Part shown: positions 51,990 through 64,000 of the stretch, in pieces
Layout of the letters: every line of letters begins with the position of its first letter
How positions within the stretch are numbered: position 1 is the first letter of the stretch
Source of the DNA: Bacteroidota bacterium
GTDB lineage: Bacteria > Bacteroidota > Bacteroidia > UBA7662 > JAYUJN01
Assembly (NCBI GenBank): GCA_043765195.1
Contig: JAYUJN010000001.1
Location: 6,171-70,170, forward strand
Length of the DNA: 64,000 nt
Reading direction: 5' to 3'
Translations under genes and position numbers: made by a program
Notes under the pieces: model-generated
What the model saw: only the letters and a program-made list of their open reading frames with translations
What the model was told of the DNA's origin: nothing
Databases searched by the model: none

Positions 51990-53000
51990 ATGAAAGATTT
52001 GACCGTTTCGGCTATTGACCGACAAAACATAATTAATAATAAAAAAGCAGTACAGAATATACAAACTTATTTGGGTGTTACTGGTATGCTTTTTCAAGGT
52101 GAGTATAAATTTACACGACAACAAATTATAGAATTTTACGCTATAGACAATTCAACCATAGATAGATATTTATCTCAAAACCAAGAAGAATTAAAACATA
52201 ATGGTTATGTAAATCTAAAAGGGAAAGCACTTAAAGAATTTAAAGATGAATTTGGTTGGATGTTGCAGGAGGGAGCTAAGGCTCCGCAACTTGGCATTTT
52301 CAATTTTCGTTCATTTTTAAATTTGGGAATGCTGCTAACAGAGAGTGAAAAAGCTAAAGCATTAAGGAGTAAAATATTGGATATTGTAATTGACACTCTT
52401 AACCAAAAGTTAGGTGGCTCAACAAAGTATATTAACCAGCGTGAAGAAGATTTTTTAATTGCAATGGCTCGTGAGCCCGTTTATAGAAAAGAATTTACTG
52501 AAGCATTAAATAAATATTTGGAAATGGGGAACTATAAATATGCTGTTTATACCGATGCTATTTATAAAGCCATTTTTCTTGAAAAATCAGCTGAATATAA
52601 AGTGATTTTGAAGTTAGAAGAAAAAGAAAATATGAGGGACACAATGTATTCTGAGGTTCTTCGGTTGATTGCTTCGTTTGAAGTAGGAATAGCAGATGCA
52701 ATGAAGTTAAAATCTGAAAAACTGAATAGGAAACTGCAACCACCAGAATTAGATGAATTGATAGACGAATTTTCAAAACAACGATTTTGGACACCACAAA
52801 TTGAAGATGCAAGAAGCAAAATGGCAAGCCGAGATTATGGTTTAAGGAATATTATTCATGAAAGGTTAAAACCCTATATCAATTCACTAAATGCAGTGGA
52901 TTATGACAGATTTTTAGGAGATAAAAGTAAAGACCTTATACAAAGAGTAACAGAAAATCCTGACCTATTAGATGTTTTCAAACGATTAAAAGACCGATAA
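51990..53000 (+). CDS. hypothetical DNA-binding-like protein, 336 aa (possibly distant RhuM-like), upstream partner of Doc
   Basis: N-terminal HTH-like stretch KFTRQQIIEFYAIDNSTIDRYLSQNQEEL followed by a long helical region. Its stop TAA is separated from the doc ATG by a single nucleotide. The RhuM resemblance is weak and from memory only. Confidence 0.5.
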   Translation: MKDLTVSAIDRQNIINNKKAVQNIQTYLGVTGMLFQGEYKFTRQQIIEFYAIDNSTIDRYLSQNQEELKHNGYVNLKGKALKEFKDEFGWMLQEGAKAPQLGIFNFRSFLNLGMLLTESEKAKALRSKILDIVIDTLNQKLGGSTKYINQREEDFLIAMAREPVYRKEFTEALNKYLEMGNYKYAVYTDAIYKAIFLEKSAEYKVILKLEEKENMRDTMYSEVLRLIASFEVGIADAMKLKSEKLNRKLQPPELDELIDEFSKQRFWTPQIEDARSKMASRDYGLRNIIHERLKPYINSLNAVDYDRFLGDKSKDLIQRVTENPDLLDVFKRLKDR

Positions 53001-53001
53001 C

Positions 53002-53448
53002 ATGGCATTTGCATATTTTGATACTGCTCGTGCTATAACGATGCACGACGAAATAATAAATCAATCAGGTGGGTCGTTAGGCATTTTGAATATAGGCTTA
53101 TTAGAGAGTGTTATAGAGCATATTCAAAATGATTTTTATTATCCAAAATTTGAACACAAACTTACGCACCTATTCTTTTCAATTAATAAAAATCACAGCT
53201 TTCAAGATGGAAATAAAAGAGCTTCAATTGCATTGTCTGCTTATTTTTTGGAAATCAATAATTGTTCATTTAAAACAGAACAATTTATAGCTGAAATGGA
53301 AAACGTAGCAGTGGATGTAGCAGACAACAGAATTGATAAAGATTTGCTTTTTGAAATAATCCATTCAATAATTTACGAAGACGATTACACCGAAGAATTA
53401 AAATTGAAAATAATTTATGCCAAGGGATTTGATAACGAAGACCAATAA
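53002..53448 (+). CDS. doc: Fic/Doc-family toxin (death-on-curing type)
   Basis: Fic motif HSFQDGNKRAS (53194-53226) and N-terminal HDEIINQSGG, typical of Doc. 148 aa. Confidence 0.8.
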   Translation: MAFAYFDTARAITMHDEIINQSGGSLGILNIGLLESVIEHIQNDFYYPKFEHKLTHLFFSINKNHSFQDGNKRASIALSAYFLEINNCSFKTEQFIAEMENVAVDVADNRIDKDLLFEIIHSIIYEDDYTEELKLKIIYAKGFDNEDQ

Positions 53449-55697: not shown

Positions 55698-57878
55698 TTA
55701 ATTCAGTTCCTCAAAATGCACCTGCCCAGTAGCAATGTCGTGGTAGGCGCTTATAATGCCAATCTCTTTGTGGTCTATTCTGTGCTTCAAATACGGGCTT
55801 TGCTCCAATATTTCTTTCACCGAATTGTTGGCATTTTGTTTGGTCGTTTTTTCCATGAGTTCATCTTCGCTGGCGTTTTCAGGTTTTGGGTAGCAACCAC
55901 ATTCGGCGGCTACCTTCTGAATTTTTGAGGTAACGGTATGAATGTTGTCGTCCATTACATTGGCTAACGAAAGCGCCACAGCACCGCAGCTCGAATGCCC
56001 TTTTACCACAATTAGTTTTGCGCCCAGTTTTTTTACCGCAATTTCCAAGCTCCCAATTATTTCGGGGTTTATAATGTTGCCCGCAATGCGAACGGTCAAT
56101 AAATCGCCCAAATTTGCATCAAACAATATTTCGGGCGAGGTTCTGCTATCGATGCAGCTAACCAAAACCGCCATCGGGTTTTGCCCCATAGAAGTAGCTT
56201 TTACCTGATGCAAATAGTGTTTGTCGGTGCCGTTTCCATCTACAAAGCGTTTGTTGCCTGCTTTTAGCAACTCCAAAGCGTCCAGTGGTTTTAGTTTTTG
56301 TTGGGTTTCTTTGTCCAACACATTTATAAACTGTACGTTGTCTTTTAAATTATATTGCCCTTTTATGCCAAGCAAATTCAACTGAATGTTTCTTTCGGGC
56401 GCAATGGTGGTTTTAAAATCGTCTATTATTTCACGCACATCATTGTCTATAAAATTGGCGTAGGTAGCATCTATCACCACTTTTGAGCCTTTGGGTATGC
56501 TCCAAAGCGTTTCTTTTATGGTTGCTTTGTTCAAAAATGAGGTTTGGTTGGGCAGCTCCAATTTTATAACCTGACCGATGTTCAGTTTGCTTTCGTTTCT
56601 TAAAAATGGGTTTTTAAAATTGCTCCTTAGTATGTAAAACACCGCAGTAGCCAAACCTATGATTACGCCGATTAATAAATCGGTAAAAACGATTGCCAAA
56701 ATAGTGATGACAAAAGGCACAAACTGCGGTCTGCCTTTTTGGTACATTTCTTTAAACAAAGATATTTTGGTTAGTTTATAACCCGTCATAAGCAGTATGG
56801 CAGCCAGCGATGCCAAAGGAATTTGGTTTAATAATGCACTTAAAAACAACACAAAAACCAACAAAAATGCGCCGTGCAATATCGCCGAAAGTTTGGTTTG
56901 GTTGCCCGCCTGCACATTTACAGAGCTACGAACAATTACCGAAGTTACGGGCAAACCGCCCAGCAATCCCGCCATCATGTTGCCTATGCCTTGCGCCACC
57001 AATTCGGTGTTTGGGGGCGAGTTTCTTTTGTGCGGGTCCAGTTTATCTACGGCTTCGATGTTTAGCAGTGTTTCCAGCGATGCCACAATGGCGAGCGTAA
57101 GCGCCACGAGCCAAACTTGGTAGTTCGATAGGTTGGTTAGGTTGGGTAAATGAAAATAGCCCGATAGGTTGTTGGTATCAATGGCTGGAATGTTTACCAA
57201 GTGGGATTGTTGAACGGCTAAAAAAGGCACAAAATTCGTAAAAATATAATTTAAAAACACCCCAAATATAACCACAAACAAAGATGCTGGCAACAGTTTT
57301 ACATTTTTTAGTGGCGTTTTGTCCCAAAAAAGGATTACCAAAATGGATAGTAAACTTATGGCAATTGCGCCTGGGGTAATGTGGTTTAGGGCATTTAATA
57401 TTTCCGAAAAACTGTTTTCGCCATCAACCTGAAAAAAGGCACTTTCGCCCTCGGGGTCTTTGTCGTAACCCAAGGCGTGCGGTATTTGCTTGATAATCAA
57501 CAAGATGCCAATAGATGCCAAAAGCCCTTTAATTACATTTGAGGGTACAAAGTTGGCTACCAAACCTGCTTTGGCTATGCCCAGCAGTAACTGAATAATG
57601 CCTGCCAAAAATACCGCAGTTAGAAACACCTCGAACGAACCGAGCTTTGTGATTGAGGCGAGTACCACGGCGGCAAGCCCAGCGGCGGGTCCGCTCACGC
57701 TTGTTTGCGATTGGCTTATAAACCCCACCACAATGCCACCAATGACCCCAGAAATGATGCCCGAAAGTAGCGGTGCGCCCGATGCCAAGGCGATGCCCAA
57801 GCACAGCGGAATTGCTACCAGAAATACAACGATACTGGCTGGTAAGTCGCTTTTGATGTTTCCGAATAATTTTTTCAT
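55698..57878 (-). CDS. SulP-family anion transporter fused to STAS-like region and C-terminal beta-carbonic anhydrase
   Basis: SulP membrane domain, STAS-like segment (IKLELPNQTSFLNKATIKE ... VVIDATYANFID). The C-terminal ~200 aa carry beta-CA motifs VSCIDSRTSPE and KGHSSCGAV. Confidence 0.85.
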   Translation of the reverse strand: MKKLFGNIKSDLPASIVVFLVAIPLCLGIALASGAPLLSGIISGVIGGIVVGFISQSQTSVSGPAAGLAAVVLASITKLGSFEVFLTAVFLAGIIQLLLGIAKAGLVANFVPSNVIKGLLASIGILLIIKQIPHALGYDKDPEGESAFFQVDGENSFSEILNALNHITPGAIAISLLSILVILFWDKTPLKNVKLLPASLFVVIFGVFLNYIFTNFVPFLAVQQSHLVNIPAIDTNNLSGYFHLPNLTNLSNYQVWLVALTLAIVASLETLLNIEAVDKLDPHKRNSPPNTELVAQGIGNMMAGLLGGLPVTSVIVRSSVNVQAGNQTKLSAILHGAFLLVFVLFLSALLNQIPLASLAAILLMTGYKLTKISLFKEMYQKGRPQFVPFVITILAIVFTDLLIGVIIGLATAVFYILRSNFKNPFLRNESKLNIGQVIKLELPNQTSFLNKATIKETLWSIPKGSKVVIDATYANFIDNDVREIIDDFKTTIAPERNIQLNLLGIKGQYNLKDNVQFINVLDKETQQKLKPLDALELLKAGNKRFVDGNGTDKHYLHQVKATSMGQNPMAVLVSCIDSRTSPEILFDANLGDLLTVRIAGNIINPEIIGSLEIAVKKLGAKLIVVKGHSSCGAVALSLANVMDDNIHTVTSKIQKVAAECGCYPKPENASEDELMEKTTKQNANNSVKEILEQSPYLKHRIDHKEIGIISAYHDIATGQVHFEELN

Positions 57879-58420: not shown

Positions 58421-58861
58421 ATGCCCAAAATCAAGTGTTCAACCAACACAAAAAGTAGTTTACAAATGCAAGGCGCACAAAGAAAATTCTTATTTTTTGC
58501 TTTATTCACAGCTCTCTGCTGCTTTACCCAAGTGTTTTATTTGGGTAGCAACAAGCAAGCCGCTGTGCATAGCACCCAAATAAATGAGGTTAGCCAGCTC
58601 GTAAGCCACGCACCCAACTCGGACGTAAAAACGACCGAACTCGACTTTAAAAAGCCACAAATTTTTATAGAGGAAACTGCGCAAGACGATACCAGCGCTC
58701 CCGAAAAAAACTTTGGTGGCTCTAACCAACTTTTTAATGGTAGCAAAAACGAATTTGGCGCACATTTAAGCCAAATTTTTACTAATTTCTTTGCTATTTT
58801 AGGTATCTCTACCATAGTTCCACTTTACTTGCTTTACAACAAGTTAAAGGTTTTTTGTTAA
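58421..58861 (+). CDS. hypothetical protein with N-terminal and C-terminal hydrophobic segments (146 aa)
   Basis: ORF begins 25 nt after a perfect -7 box. It has an N-terminal hydrophobic stretch FLFFALFTALCCF and a C-terminal stretch FFAILGISTIVPLYLLY. No family recognised. Confidence 0.4.
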   Translation: MPKIKCSTNTKSSLQMQGAQRKFLFFALFTALCCFTQVFYLGSNKQAAVHSTQINEVSQLVSHAPNSDVKTTELDFKKPQIFIEETAQDDTSAPEKNFGGSNQLFNGSKNEFGAHLSQIFTNFFAILGISTIVPLYLLYNKLKVFC

Positions 58862-58924: not shown

Positions 58925-58968
58925 GCACGCTCGCACATTTTGTTTGCGCAGAGCCGTGCGTATTTTTT
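58925..58968 (+). terminator. imperfect GC hairpin followed by a T-run, upstream of the SulP start (terminator or attenuator-like)
   Basis: GCACGCTCGC (58925-58934) pairs with bulges to GCGCAGAGCCGTGC (58946-58959), then TATTTTTT (58961-58968). It lies 35 nt upstream of ATG 59003. Confidence 0.3.
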
Positions 58969-59002: not shown

Positions 59003-60598
59003 ATGAACAATCAAAAAAACTACCCTGTCGATGGTTTCGCAGGCTTAAAACAAAATATTTCTACCGATGCCATTTCTGGCTTCATCGTATTTTTACTGGC
59101 ATTGCCCCTAAGTTTGGGTATCGCCAAGGCATCAGAGTTTCCGCCGCTCATGGGGCTGCTCACAGCCATGATAGGCGGGTTGGTGGTGAGCCTAATTTCT
59201 GGCTCATTGCTTACCATAAAAGGACCAGCCGCAGGGCTTATCGTAATTGTAGCTGGTGCCGTAACCGATTTTGGCGGCGGCGATACTGGCTGGCACCTTG
59301 CGCTGGGCGCTATGGTGGTGGCTGGCTTGATACAAATTTTATTTGGCGTGCTTAAATTAGGGCGATTCTCTGATTTTTTTCCGTTGGCTGCCATACACGG
59401 TATGCTGGCTGCCATAGGCATTATAATTGTAGCCAAACAAGTACCAGTGCTTATGGGCGTGAACCCCGCACTAACCAAGGGCAAAGCACCGCTGGAACTG
59501 CTGGCAAATATCCCCAATTTTATAACGCACCTAAACCCAACGGCTACGCTTATTGGCGTGGTTAGTTTGGTTATTATGATGGGTTTGCCGATGATAAAAA
59601 ACAAATTTGTGAAAAAAATACCAGGTTCGCTCCTCGTACTTATGGTAGCCATACCCGCAGCTTTATTTCTACAATTTAAAACCACCCAGCCCGCTTACAC
59701 ACTCGTAAAAATAGGCAACTTACTGGACAATATAAAAATAAACGTAGATTTTTCGGGCATACACCAAATGGGTACTTTTGTAAAATACGTAATTATGTTT
59801 GCGCTGGTGGGTACGCTCGAGTCGTTGCTTACCGTAAAAGCCATAGACATGATGGACCCCCACAAACGCAAATCCAACACCAACAAAGACATTATAGCCA
59901 TAGGTGTAGGCAACGTAATATCGGCAATATTGGGCGGTTTACCCATGATTTCGGAGGTAGCACGTAGCTCGTCCAACGTAAACAACGGCGCAAAAACCAG
60001 GTGGGCAAACTTTTTTCACGGGTTTTTTATCTTAGTATTTGTGCTTTTTGCAGCCCCACTCATAGAAATGATACCCAACGCCGCTTTGGCAGCCATGCTT
60101 ATAAGCGTGGGCATAAAATTGGCGCACCCAAAAGAGTTTATCCACGTGTTTAAAATCGGAAAAGAACAATTAGCCATATTTTTAGTAACCATTTTCTTTA
60201 CTTTATCCCAAGATTTATTGGTAGGCATCGCCGCAGGTATTGCCCTAAAAATGATTGTACACGTGATAAACGGCGCACCCATCAGCTCTTTGTTCAAAGC
60301 CGTGGTATCTATCTCATCGCACGAAGATGATTATTTGGTAGAAATAGAACAATCGGCGATATTCAGCAATTTTATAGGCATAAAAAGCCAATTGGAGAGC
60401 ATACCACACGGCAAAAACTTGACCATAAACCTTTCCAAAGCCAAACTAATAGACCACTCGGTGATGGAAAACCTGTACCATTTTCAGGAGGATTACATAG
60501 CCGAAGGTTATAGGTGCGTGCTCGAGGGCATACAAAACCACAGACCACTGTCGGCGCACGAGCTGGCTGCCAGAAAAATAACCCGCCTAACCGTTTAA
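59003..60598 (+). CDS. SulP-family anion transporter with C-terminal STAS domain (BicA-like architecture)
   Basis: Start moved to ATG 59003 (MNNQKNYPVDGFAGLKQNI). SulP membrane core and STAS-like C-terminus (YLVEIEQSAIFSNFIGIKSQLESIP ... LSKAKLIDHSVMENL). Confidence 0.85.
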   Translation: MNNQKNYPVDGFAGLKQNISTDAISGFIVFLLALPLSLGIAKASEFPPLMGLLTAMIGGLVVSLISGSLLTIKGPAAGLIVIVAGAVTDFGGGDTGWHLALGAMVVAGLIQILFGVLKLGRFSDFFPLAAIHGMLAAIGIIIVAKQVPVLMGVNPALTKGKAPLELLANIPNFITHLNPTATLIGVVSLVIMMGLPMIKNKFVKKIPGSLLVLMVAIPAALFLQFKTTQPAYTLVKIGNLLDNIKINVDFSGIHQMGTFVKYVIMFALVGTLESLLTVKAIDMMDPHKRKSNTNKDIIAIGVGNVISAILGGLPMISEVARSSSNVNNGAKTRWANFFHGFFILVFVLFAAPLIEMIPNAALAAMLISVGIKLAHPKEFIHVFKIGKEQLAIFLVTIFFTLSQDLLVGIAAGIALKMIVHVINGAPISSLFKAVVSISSHEDDYLVEIEQSAIFSNFIGIKSQLESIPHGKNLTINLSKAKLIDHSVMENLYHFQEDYIAEGYRCVLEGIQNHRPLSAHELAARKITRLTV

Positions 60599-60612
60599 AC
60601 GACACTAATAAA

Positions 60613-61377
60613 ATGAAATATTTCAAAATAATAATAGTAGCCGCCCTTGTATGTATGAGCGGCTACACCGCCCAAGCCCAGCGCAACACAGTAATAAACA
60701 ACAATGCGTGGCTGGTATATAACGGCGACCACAAAGTAAGCGATAAGTGGGGCGTTCACTTAGAAATGCAAGTGCGCCGCAACGAGCTGCTATCGAAACC
60801 CATGCAGCTACTGCCAAGGGTGGGCATTAACTATTACTTCAATCCGCAAGTAATGGCTACGGCTGGCTACGCCTACGTAGAAACCGACCCCTACGGCAAG
60901 TTTCCAGTAACCACCAAGTTTGGGGAGAGCCGTGCTTGGGAGCAAATACAGATAAAAAACCAGTTTAATAGGGTGGAGCAAGTAAACAGAATACGCCTCG
61001 AGCAGCGGTTTGTAAACCTGCCCGTTCGCTCGGCAACCGACGGCACGTACAAGCCCGGACCAGCCGTTTATTCCAACCGCATACGCCTACAAAACAGGAT
61101 AGCCGTGCCTTTAAACGGAAAAACGATTGTAGATAAATCGGTGTACGTTACGGCTGCCGACGAAATATTTGTGAATTTTGGTAAGAATGTAGGCAAAAAT
61201 ATTTTTGACCAAAACCGTGCCTACGCCGCCATAGGCTACAAAGTACCCAAACTGGGTAGGGTAGAGGCTGGCTATCTGTGGCAGGTAATAGCCAAATCGG
61301 ACGGCATACGCATAGAGAGCAACTACACGCTGCAAGTGGGCATTTTTTCTACCATCGATTTTTATAAAAAAAAGTAA
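60613..61377 (+). CDS. DUF2490-like protein with signal peptide (predicted beta-rich, possibly outer-membrane)
   Basis: Start moved to ATG 60613 (MKYFKIIIVAALVCMSGYTAQAQ). NNNAWLVYNGDHKVSDKWGVHLEMQVRRN matches my recollection of DUF2490. Its stop TAA is directly followed by the dabA ATG. Confidence 0.6.
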   Translation: MKYFKIIIVAALVCMSGYTAQAQRNTVINNNAWLVYNGDHKVSDKWGVHLEMQVRRNELLSKPMQLLPRVGINYYFNPQVMATAGYAYVETDPYGKFPVTTKFGESRAWEQIQIKNQFNRVEQVNRIRLEQRFVNLPVRSATDGTYKPGPAVYSNRIRLQNRIAVPLNGKTIVDKSVYVTAADEIFVNFGKNVGKNIFDQNRAYAAIGYKVPKLGRVEAGYLWQVIAKSDGIRIESNYTLQVGIFSTIDFYKKK

Positions 61378-63939
61378 ATGAACACGCACACACAAACCGA
61401 TAACACGTTCGATGCGCACGAAGTGCTGCACGAACTGGCGCACTATTTGCCCTCGCAAACGCCCATAAAAGACTTTATACACCACAACTCGCTGCACGCT
61501 TTTCAGGATATGAAGTTTTTTGATGCCATTTTTAAAGCCTCAAAAATATTTGGCTACCAAGCTACTTTGCAGCTCGCCGATTATAGAACCATGTATGAGC
61601 AAGGGCGCATTAGCCCCGAGGTACTAAACAGGCTTATTTTGGACAAAAAAGGTGTGGCGCAGCTCATTAACTGGCAACAAAAACTACTAAGCCAAACCTA
61701 TAATGTAGAAAGCGATGCCAGAATAGGCACATTGCGCCAAAACTGGAAAAAGCACTACAAAATAGACATGGACACAATGGTTCACCCTACTTTGTTTCGG
61801 ATACTTTGTAGCTATTTGGACCAAGGCATCGCCATTTGGGATTTTCCTACCAACGGAAAAGGCTTGATAGCGGGCTTAAAAACGCTGGAAAAAAACAGTT
61901 TTACCAGTTTTTTTAAAACCAAAACGGCTCGCAAGCTATTGCTATCCGATGACTGCACCATAGAATCGTTGCTTAAAATGGTGGTGGGCAACCCCAGCTA
62001 CTACAAACAATATTTGTACGACCAGCAGTTTGCGCACAGAGGCTGGTCGGGCATGGCGGCTACCTTAGAGCATAGCCCAGATACCTTGCTCAGTCCCAAA
62101 AAAATAACGCTGGAAGAGGTAGTGCTGCTCGACCTTTTGCTGGAAATAGACAACCTAACCTACAAATTTGGCGTGGGCAACTGGCAGCCACTGGCGGAGT
62201 ACCTAACCGAGCCGCCGATGGAGTTGCTGGATAGCGTGCCGCCCACGGAGCTGCAAGAGGTATATGAACTGTGGCAAAAAGCCTTTGAGTGGAGCTACTA
62301 CGACCAAGTACTGTCGGGCATAAGTGCCTTAAAAGACAAAAAAAGTAGGGAATTGCCGCAAAAAGAAGCGTACCAAAAAAGTTTTCAAGCCATATTTTGT
62401 ATAGATGAGCGAGAATGCTCCTTGCGCCGCCACGTGGAGCAGTTAGATACCGAATGCGAAACGCTGGGTATGCCAGGGTTTTTTGGGGTGGAGTTTTATT
62501 TTCAGGCAGAAAACGCCAAGTTTTACGACAAAATGGCACCTGCGCCCGTTACGCCTCGTTTTCTTATAAAAGAGCAAAACAACAACAAATCACGCCCGCA
62601 CGAGGCTTTTTATAATTCTAAGGCGCACACGCTTTTGGGCGGATATTTGGCATCGTTCACCTTTGGTTTTTGGGCTATTGGAAAGCTAATACGCAACTTG
62701 TACGCACCCAAAATGACACCCGCCATTTCCAATGCTTTTGCGCACATGCACAAATACTCGAGCCTGAGCATAGAAAACAAAGACGTAAACGACCAAGAAA
62801 ACGGGCTGCAAATAGGCTTTACCACCACCGAAATGGCGGATAGGGTAGAGGGCGCACTGCGCAACATTGGGCTTATAAAAAACTTTGCGCCGCTTATATA
62901 TTTGGTATCGCATGGGGCAAGTACAGCCAACAACCCGCACCACGGCGCATACGATTGTGGTGCGTGCAGCGGCAGACCAGGCTCTGTGAACTCAAAAGTG
63001 ATGGCATTTATGGCGAACCACCCCAAGGTAAGGGAAATATTGGTGCAAAGAGGCATAACGATACCAGATACTACGCAGTTTTTGGGGGCGATGCACGATA
63101 CTTCTGCCGACGAAATGCAGTTTTATGAATTAGATGCGCTCACAACCGTAAACCAAGAAGCACACAAAAACAATGAAATAACGTTTGAAAATGCTTTAAA
63201 TTACAACGCAAAAGAACGCTCTCGCAGGTTTGCCTCCATAGATACCAAAGGTAGCTTGGTAAAAGTACGCCAAAAAATAAAAGAGCGCTCGGTGTCGTTT
63301 TTTGAGCCACGCCCAGAGCTTGGGCACGGCACCAATGCCCTGTGTATTATAGGCAACCGCAGTTTTACCAAGGGTTTGTTTTTGGATAGGCGTGCGTTTA
63401 TGAACTCCTACGACTACAAAACCGACCCCGAGGGCAAGCTCTTACTGGGTGTGATGCGCCCCATAGGTCCGGTTTGCGGCGGTATAAACTTGGAGTACTA
63501 TTTTTCGAGGGTAGATAACTATAAGCTGGGGGCGGGTACTAAGCTCTCGCACAATGTAATGGGGCTTATTGGTGTAGCCAACAGCAGCGACGGCGACCTA
63601 CGCCCAGGCTTGCCCATACAAATGGTAGAAGTGCACGACCCCGTGCGCCTAATGGTAATAGTGGAGCATAGCCCCGAAATAGTACTAAAAGCAATAAACA
63701 CCCAAGCCGATACCTACCAGTGGTTTCAAAACGAGTGGGTGCATTTGGTGGCGGCTTGCCCTGTAACGAACAAGTATTTTTACTTTAAAAATGACCAGTT
63801 TCAGGAATATAAGCCAGGCTTTGTAGAAATACAAAACAAAAAAAACATGATTGACCTCATAGAATCGGCTAAACTAATGAAATCCAATAAAATAGTAGAT
63901 TCTACCAAAGAAAACCTCCCAATCCACATTTTACAATAA
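61378..63939 (+). CDS. dabA: DUF2309-family protein, inorganic carbon pump subunit DabA
   Basis: 853 aa. IKDFIHHNSLHAF. Beta-CA-like zinc site residues are conserved in the same spacing as described for DabA: FCIDERE (Cys341, Asp343; 62398-62406), His512 (62911-62913) and YDCGAC (Cys527, Cys530; 62956-62967). Confidence 0.85.
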   Translation: MNTHTQTDNTFDAHEVLHELAHYLPSQTPIKDFIHHNSLHAFQDMKFFDAIFKASKIFGYQATLQLADYRTMYEQGRISPEVLNRLILDKKGVAQLINWQQKLLSQTYNVESDARIGTLRQNWKKHYKIDMDTMVHPTLFRILCSYLDQGIAIWDFPTNGKGLIAGLKTLEKNSFTSFFKTKTARKLLLSDDCTIESLLKMVVGNPSYYKQYLYDQQFAHRGWSGMAATLEHSPDTLLSPKKITLEEVVLLDLLLEIDNLTYKFGVGNWQPLAEYLTEPPMELLDSVPPTELQEVYELWQKAFEWSYYDQVLSGISALKDKKSRELPQKEAYQKSFQAIFCIDERECSLRRHVEQLDTECETLGMPGFFGVEFYFQAENAKFYDKMAPAPVTPRFLIKEQNNNKSRPHEAFYNSKAHTLLGGYLASFTFGFWAIGKLIRNLYAPKMTPAISNAFAHMHKYSSLSIENKDVNDQENGLQIGFTTTEMADRVEGALRNIGLIKNFAPLIYLVSHGASTANNPHHGAYDCGACSGRPGSVNSKVMAFMANHPKVREILVQRGITIPDTTQFLGAMHDTSADEMQFYELDALTTVNQEAHKNNEITFENALNYNAKERSRRFASIDTKGSLVKVRQKIKERSVSFFEPRPELGHGTNALCIIGNRSFTKGLFLDRRAFMNSYDYKTDPEGKLLLGVMRPIGPVCGGINLEYYFSRVDNYKLGAGTKLSHNVMGLIGVANSSDGDLRPGLPIQMVEVHDPVRLMVIVEHSPEIVLKAINTQADTYQWFQNEWVHLVAACPVTNKYFYFKNDQFQEYKPGFVEIQNKKNMIDLIESAKLMKSNKIVDSTKENLPIHILQ

Positions 63940-63945
63940 ATTATT

Positions 63946-64000
63946 ATGCAACAGATACTTGCTCTTTTTATACTTATTCCATTGCTGGGGCTTATAATAA
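63946..64000 (+). CDS. dabB: start of NuoL/Mrp-like membrane subunit, probable DabB (partial, runs off the right edge)
   Basis: ATG lies 6 nt after the dabA stop. It reads MQQILALFILIPLLGLII, the hydrophobic N-terminus typical of NuoL-like proteins. Assignment rests mainly on context. Confidence 0.5.
   Translation, partial: MQQILALFILIPLLGLII

Follow-up and report, generated by a model that had tools for sequence, protein, structure and literature searches.

In a 64,000-nucleotide (nt) stretch of DNA from a Bacteroidota bacterium (assembly GCA_043765195.1, contig JAYUJN010000001.1, positions 6,171 to 70,170 of the forward strand; hereafter the window), a gene for a DUF2490 protein stands between the genes for a SulP-family anion transporter and for DabA of the DabAB system for inorganic carbon (Ci). 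The locus raises the question of what a DUF2490 protein does in such an operon. A preliminary description, made from the sequence, had proposed that it is an exported, possibly outer-membrane partner that would make this an envelope-spanning Ci pathway. As set out below, we lean towards a reading in which DUF2490 is an anion-selective outer-membrane conduit feeding HCO3- to SulP, not a DabA-specific partner.

The DUF2490 open reading frame (ORF) spans window positions 60613–61377 on the forward (+) strand, from an ATG at 60613 to a TAA at 61375–61377, and encodes a 254-amino-acid product starting MKYFKIIIVAALVCMSGYTAQAQ. As described previously, it starts 14 nt (60599–60612) after the SulP stop codon (60596–60598), and its TAA is directly followed by the dabA ATG at 61378, with 0 nt between the two; these coordinates were confirmed in the sequence. 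A longer frame from a GTG at 60514 (287 amino acids) is not supported: it would overlap SulP, and the N-termini of homologues align at the ATG at 60613. The upstream SulP gene (59003–60598, +; Pfam Sulfate_transp, E 9.9e-66) encodes 531 amino acids from its first in-frame ATG at 59003 (MNNQKNY), while the listed ORF begins at a TTG at 58940. Downstream, dabA (61378–63939, +) encodes an 853-amino-acid protein matching PF10070 (E 3e-212, 707.5 bits), with CIDER and HG...C motifs; DabA is the subunit of the CO2-hydrating DAB pump that resembles a beta-carbonic anhydrase and is cytoplasmic. The dabB gene starts at 63946, 6 nt 3' of the dabA stop codon, and its 5' end (63946–64000, +) lies in the window; the gene extends past the window end to G000:C1:71984 (ORF L003:6117–7985), and its full 622-amino-acid, NuoL/Mrp-like product matches Proton_antipo_M (PF00361, E 2.9e-35) and Proton_antipo_N (PF00662, E 6.7e-11). 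No terminator-like site was found on the + strand from the SulP stop through the end of dabA. The tight TAA/ATG abutment is ordinary operon spacing, since most gaps around DUF2490 in related loci are ≤20 nt when the first ATG is taken as the approximate start. Judged from this layout, the DUF2490 gene is predicted to be co-transcribed with those for SulP, DabA and DabB.

The protein is a full-length member of the DUF2490 family, matching PF10677 with an E value of 3.6e-47 and 160.9 bits (cut-off 29.8) over model positions 2–182 of 186. No other Pfam family matched at E values up to 10, there was no Pfam match to PF10070 or PF00361, and NCBIfam holds no DUF2490 model. The N-terminus, MKYFKIIIVAALVCMSGYTAQA followed by Q, combines a pair of lysines with a hydrophobic core and the cleavage motif A-Q-A, and was assigned by eye as a Sec signal peptide comprising residues 1–23 (AQA/Q; 60613–60681, +), in agreement with the preliminary description; the same N-terminal pattern is common to the homologues. 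A search of 5.8 billion proteins yielded 215 relatives, the best with 45–63% identity, all with PF10677 and nearly all from Bacteroidota metagenome bins. A second, distant DUF2490 paralogue is encoded at G000:C25:9862–10521 (L004:5862–6521, – strand), with 20% identity and a PF10677 E value of 8e-18. Its neighbours are gldB on one side and a gene for a fatty-acid hydroxylase on the other, and it has no Ci context.

The beta-strand-like character noted earlier was borne out by structure prediction. An AlphaFold2 run on a 54-sequence alignment gave an apparently closed beta-barrel with a mean predicted local distance difference test (pLDDT) score of 94.9 and a predicted template-modelling score (pTM) of 0.85. 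By DSSP, a helix at residues 2–20, corresponding to the signal peptide, precedes strand 1, and 11 long strands and one short hairpin follow. The chain does not end at the near-invariant F250 but continues into a Lys-rich YKKK tail. On every strand, one face is polar and near-invariant (14 K/R, 8 D/E and 1 H in all), while the other is hydrophobic and variable. The Arg/Glu/Tyr core of the lumen that is found family-wide is present, comprising R55, R107, R126, R128, E184, R202 and Y178. All DUF2490 matches listed in a Foldseek comparison with the PDB were outer-membrane barrels, the best of matching size being NanC, KdgM, PcoB and autotransporter barrels, with template-modelling (TM) scores of 0.43–0.52; for the model, this fixes the fold class and nothing closer. 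A profile search of PDB sequences for a solved relative gave nothing relevant. The model thus predicts that the DUF2490 protein is a Sec-exported, monomer-sized outer-membrane beta-barrel.

Known outer-membrane channels offer two comparisons. KdgM and NanC are operon-encoded, substrate-dedicated monomeric channels in which basic residues line the lumen, and their substrates are sugar acids, not Ci. They (PDB 4pr7, 2wjr, 8xua) are of similar size and barrel class to DUF2490, with a best target-normalised TM score of about 0.5, which indicates fold class only, and have no sequence relationship to it. The Pseudomonas proteins OprP and OprO (PDB 2o4v, 4rjw) are phosphate- and pyrophosphate-specific, 16-stranded trimers of ~410–430 residues with an arginine-rich lumen. 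They provide a functional analogy, that of an anion-specific outer-membrane channel serving anion uptake across the inner membrane; unlike them, DUF2490 has 254 residues and about 11–12 strands, and shares no sequence similarity with them. Neither OprP nor OprO was among the 50 DUF2490 matches listed by Foldseek; both match an unrelated barrel of 450 amino acids, described below. By analogy, DUF2490 might work like the dedicated channels KdgM/NanC or OprP, yet it falls outside those families.

The linkage of the close DUF2490 subfamily to Ci genes was analyzed by scanning a single genome for each species, which gave 80 loci, with a DUF2490 ORF callable in 79. For annotation of the loci we called the ORFs ourselves and used phmmer and tallies of Pfam families. 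In 33 of the 79, dabA/dabB lay within four genes of DUF2490, and six further loci had only SulP or beta-carbonic anhydrase (beta-CA) nearby; one of the loci counted as unlinked ends at a contig edge just before a dabA fragment. Five gene orders were observed among the linked loci. With S, D, A and B standing for SulP, DUF2490, DabA and DabB, the order S-D-A-B of the window was found in 12 other loci, S-A-B-D in 10, A-B-S-D in four, a divergent arrangement b-a..S-D in four, and D-A-B in three, and the most frequent placement of DUF2490 was directly after SulP. By comparison, DabA was found in 24 of 401 genomes sampled evenly across the phylum, so that the non-random association of DUF2490 with dabA and SulP anticipated by the preliminary description held up. 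On a maximum-likelihood tree, Ci-linked DUF2490 genes are intermingled with unlinked ones, and the well-supported branches require nine or more state changes; the link has therefore not been inherited as a single synteny block. No other recurrent partner was found near the 40 unlinked subfamily loci, the most frequent family being the TonB-receptor Plug (5 of 107 neighbours).

Some individual loci in this set deserve mention. Flavobacteriales loci are polymorphic for a SulP-DabA-DabB cassette between sufBCDSE and DUF2490 (L048, L055 and L057 versus L050, L031, L061 and L077), and one locus from Flavobacteriales bins (L029) has retained SulP alone from the cassette. A 167-amino-acid lipoprotein encoded downstream of the Flavobacteriales DUF2490 was considered as a carbonic anhydrase of another class; it had no Pfam match and a helical-looking sequence, and the assignment was not supported. 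Two loci, labelled Phycisphaerales (L028) and Bifidobacterium (L051), carry Bacteroidota-type DUF2490 loci nested among Bacteroidota on the tree, and are probably mis-binned or mislabelled metagenome contigs.

The 401-genome sample also allowed the association to be viewed from the side of DabA. DUF2490 was present in 137 of the 401 genomes, and in about 88 of 100 sampled from the window's class, where more than one copy is frequent; with the family so widespread, its co-occurrence with DabA at the genome level was uninformative within the class, and adjacency was taken instead. Twenty DabA loci from the sample were annotated. Fourteen of the dabAB loci, which we call clade I, have a DabA close to that of the window and a DabB of 618–645 amino acids; in the others, DabA is distant and DabB short, and neither SulP nor DUF2490 is present. 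At 12 of the 14 clade-I loci, the cluster contains a SulP gene of either type, and orthologues of the window SulP (E 1e-171 to 1e-251) were found at 10. DUF2490 directly follows SulP in five (G000, G012, G095, G077 and G111).

Of the nine clade-I loci without DUF2490, four encode an unrelated protein of ~450 amino acids in the DUF2490 slot, after SulP or DabB (L010:14974–16320, L017:15033–16385, L009:18741–20000 and L020:1021–2379). These proteins have a signal peptide and end in ..QYQFSF or a closely related sequence; they have no Pfam family, and 1,672 relatives at E ≤ 1e-10. The AlphaFold2 model (pLDDT 81.8) matched Omp32, OprO, OprP and OmpF in Foldseek, with E values of about 1e-9 to 1e-10. 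In total, 9 of the 14 clade-I dabAB loci thus encode a predicted outer-membrane barrel, from two unrelated families. That the slot is filled by two unrelated barrel families supports a conduit role for it.

The association with Ci genes was also seen in the wider DUF2490 family, represented by the best 40 PF10677 matches from the window's class in the 401-genome sample. Ten of these 40 loci had beta-CA, SulP or both within two genes of DUF2490, and Ci genes occupied 10 of the 80 immediately adjacent slots, thinning out with distance. Pro_CA was the top Pfam family within two positions on either side (11 of 150 proteins, in 10 loci), ahead of GNAT (6) and TonB-receptor domains (5). Alpha- and iota-class carbonic anhydrases were absent from the 25 most frequent neighbour families, both here and around the unlinked subfamily loci. 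The observed 25% of loci with a Ci gene within two genes compares with a chance level below 1–2% per locus (binomial P 2e-13 to 5e-9, the value of about 5e-9 corresponding to ten of 40 at a generous 2%). On the family tree, the Ci-linked genes fall in at least four separate clades, and three large clades contain none.

Six of the neighbouring carbonic anhydrases are exported, four with a lipoprotein Cys box and two with a signal of the signal peptidase I type (L105:4175–4915, L112:5653–6396, L130:3369–4109, L132:4179–4916, L140:5687–6454 and L141:5732–6493). With DUF2490, these exported beta-CAs form two-gene units without SulP or DabAB, in which the genes are separated by 5–60 nt or overlap shortly; in L130, one leucine-rich repeat gene lies between them. 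In one genus, DUF2490 is flanked by a bacterial bestrophin, a member of an anion channel family, and by a Na+/H+ exchanger (L109:5668–6672; 537-amino-acid gene in L107/L109). The bestrophin neighbour was seen at one locus only, and TauE and sirohaem synthase neighbours at three others.

Further genes at the window locus belong to the same context. Divergent from the operon and upstream of it is a gene for a 726-amino-acid SulP–beta-CA fusion (55698–57878, – strand) with Sulfate_transp (E 2.4e-60) and Pro_CA (E 6.1e-32) matches, the translation of which contains the carbonic anhydrase motifs CIDSR and HSSC. All detectable SulP, beta-CA and DabAB genes of the assembly sit at this one locus; the fused beta-CA is the sole one found, and no RuBisCO large subunit was found in the assembly, which is 82.6% complete. 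The SulP encoded ahead of DUF2490 scores under the cut-off for the NCBIfam sulP, DauA and BicA models; it is likely an HCO3- importer.

Ahead of the operon lies a small ORF of 146 amino acids (58421–58861, +), which has no Pfam or NCBIfam match. Thirteen other clade-I dabAB loci have a counterpart at this position; when aligned, these ORFs share no more than an N-terminus that is hydrophobic, an acidic central part and a C-terminal motif resembling L[YF]L[LF]xxx[LW][KR]. The ORF might encode a genuine small membrane protein or be a leader. Elsewhere in the window (51990–53448), a 336-amino-acid ORF without a Pfam match is followed, after a 1-nt gap, by one for a 148-amino-acid Fic/DOC-family protein (PF02661, E 1.2e-11).

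How would a barrel contribute to such a system? In the mechanism we propose, DUF2490 would be the outer-membrane step of inorganic carbon acquisition, a narrow conduit that would let HCO3- into the periplasm. It would probably be anion-selective because the lumen is rich in arginine. SulP would then carry the periplasmic HCO3- across the inner membrane, DabAB would turn CO2 into HCO3- in the cytoplasm and thereby trap it, and the divergent SulP–beta-CA fusion would form a second route. Since no RuBisCO was detectable, the bicarbonate would serve the carboxylases of a heterotrophic metabolism. From the predicted fold and the gene neighbourhoods we infer the outer-membrane location, an open pore, selectivity for anions or HCO3-, and a benefit to SulP rather than to DabAB.

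The last point follows from what is known of the DAB pumps, which consist of DabA and DabB, plus DabC in DAB1 (Desmarais et al., bioRxiv 10.1101/476713; 10.64898/2026.05.01.722082). The action of DabAB on CO2 takes place from the cytoplasmic side (bioRxiv 10.64898/2026.05.01.722082), and DabAB should not require an anion channel. As DabA is cytoplasmic and has CO2 as its substrate, an anion channel would serve SulP, not DabAB. The neighbours in the window are genuine DAB subunits, DabA matching PF10070 and DabB PF00361, and the genome shows no RuBisCO; the DAB complexes described are inner-membrane and cytoplasmic only, and no DAB subunit is a homologue of DUF2490. The envelope-spanning Ci pathway of the preliminary description therefore stands in part: the barrel fold and the Ci linkage support it, while DabA as the specific partner does not hold, SulP being the gene that DUF2490 most often follows directly and beta-CA the commonest neighbour in the wider family.

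A more far-reaching version of the proposal is possible, and we regard it as doubtful: DUF2490 would be the first dedicated outer-membrane Ci channel, selective for bicarbonate, and would form, with exported carbonic anhydrases, SulP and DabAB, a trans-envelope pathway with periplasmic CO2/HCO3- interconversion in heterotrophic Bacteroidota. In the species with lipoprotein carbonic anhydrases, the barrel and the enzyme may form a physical complex at the outer membrane.

Several observations weigh against a role of DUF2490 as an anion-selective conduit for HCO3-. HCO3- is small enough for general porins, and a dedicated channel is not obviously required. The number of long strands assigned by DSSP is odd (11), which is unusual for a bacterial outer-membrane barrel, and the topology of the model is thus not settled. 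The Arg/Glu core of the lumen and the net charge (about +6.5) are equal in Ci-linked and unlinked members, so the core is possibly structural; residues of the lumen marking the Ci-linked copies were looked for and none were found, giving no specificity signature. In 238 DUF2490 models, an Arg/Glu/Tyr-type network was reported to be buried, with a relative accessibility of 0.04–0.05 (bioRxiv 10.64898/2026.07.29.741452), and such a network could mean an occluded lumen. The gene neighbourhoods add to this. Among the 46 genomes without dabA/dabB at the subfamily locus, 39 have no DabA anywhere, so DUF2490 is not an obligate DAB component. Flavobacteriales have a resident DUF2490 gene after the suf operon, beside which the SulP-DabAB cassette is present in some cases and absent in others. 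Thirty of the 40 wider-family loci have no Ci gene nearby, and a Ci neighbour was found in none of 20 DUF2490 loci from other classes of the phylum.

Other explanations can be considered. DUF2490 might act in Ci metabolism without being a channel, either as a closed outer-membrane scaffold docking exported or lipoprotein carbonic anhydrases, or as an enzyme or sensor using the Arg/Glu/Tyr network. Barrels of the SusC type pair with lipoproteins, and the small barrels PagP and OmpT are enzymes. The wider family fits this explanation, as six of its ten carbonic anhydrase neighbours are exported and four of these are lipoproteins, and so does the network itself, which is family-wide and reportedly buried (bioRxiv 10.64898/2026.07.29.741452). 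In the window genome, however, there is no exported carbonic anhydrase beside DUF2490, the sole beta-CA being fused to SulP; a classical porin fold can fill the barrel slot in dabAB loci, which points to a conduit; and the size-matched structural neighbours include the real channels NanC and KdgM. We consider a scaffold, enzyme or sensor rather unlikely. A general channel for small solutes or anions, or a barrel with a structural role, that does not favour Ci and is merely co-regulated with its neighbours, for example in alkaline, low-CO2 water, would account for the presence of DUF2490 in most genomes of the class, for the many copies without a Ci neighbour and for the lumen residues that do not set the Ci-linked copies apart. 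Alternatively, SulP might carry sulfate or another anion rather than bicarbonate, and the window SulP does score under the BicA cut-off; a few copies of DUF2490 also adjoin other ion transporters (the Na+/H+ exchanger, TauE and the one bestrophin). Such a generalist role is hard to square with beta-CA as the top neighbour of the whole sample and with the recurrence of the linkage across at least four clades and in five gene orders. In addition, the position of the window SulP between DabAB and the SulP–carbonic anhydrase fusion fixes its context as Ci. We judge this explanation unlikely.

It is also conceivable that there is no functional link at all, and that a small gene hitch-hikes with a mobile SulP-DabAB cassette or lies beside it by chance. 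The gain and loss of the cassette beside the resident DUF2490 of Flavobacteriales would be expected in that case, and metagenome bins of related freshwater lineages are the source of many of the loci. A chance level below 1–2% per locus is nevertheless far from the 25% observed, and the association occurs in divergent clades, in different orders and with different partners (DabAB, SulP, cytoplasmic carbonic anhydrase and exported carbonic anhydrase). An absence of any link is thus already disfavoured, and we consider it very improbable. An anion-selective conduit supplying SulP is the reading towards which we lean.

SulP/BicA, SbtA and DAB have been described as inner-membrane machines, and how HCO3- crosses the outer membrane of diderm bacteria has been little studied. 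Our literature search turned up no description of an outer-membrane channel dedicated to Ci, and the terms 'outer membrane' and 'porin' are absent from the text of the two DAB papers (10.1101/476713 and 10.64898/2026.05.01.722082). TCDB lists DUF2490 under 1.B.81 as a 'putative porin family' with functions not established (PMC4827864). The papers found that name DUF2490 or its accession assign it no substrate, genomic partner or link to inorganic carbon. No paper describing the link of DUF2490 to SulP, DabAB and carbonic anhydrase was found.

The neighbourhood pattern points to an undescribed outer-membrane step in inorganic carbon handling, with the dabAB-SulP operons of Bacteroidota often carrying a predicted outer-membrane barrel of their own. 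The DUF2490 family has 4,234 UniProt members (bioRxiv 10.64898/2026.07.29.741452). This large, uncharacterized family, present in about nine of ten sampled genomes of the class, thereby gains a concrete and testable hypothesis. If it is correct, it would bear on how freshwater heterotrophs obtain bicarbonate for their carboxylases, on designing heterologous Ci-uptake modules for Gram-negative hosts, and on how thousands of 'DUF2490 domain-containing proteins' are annotated.

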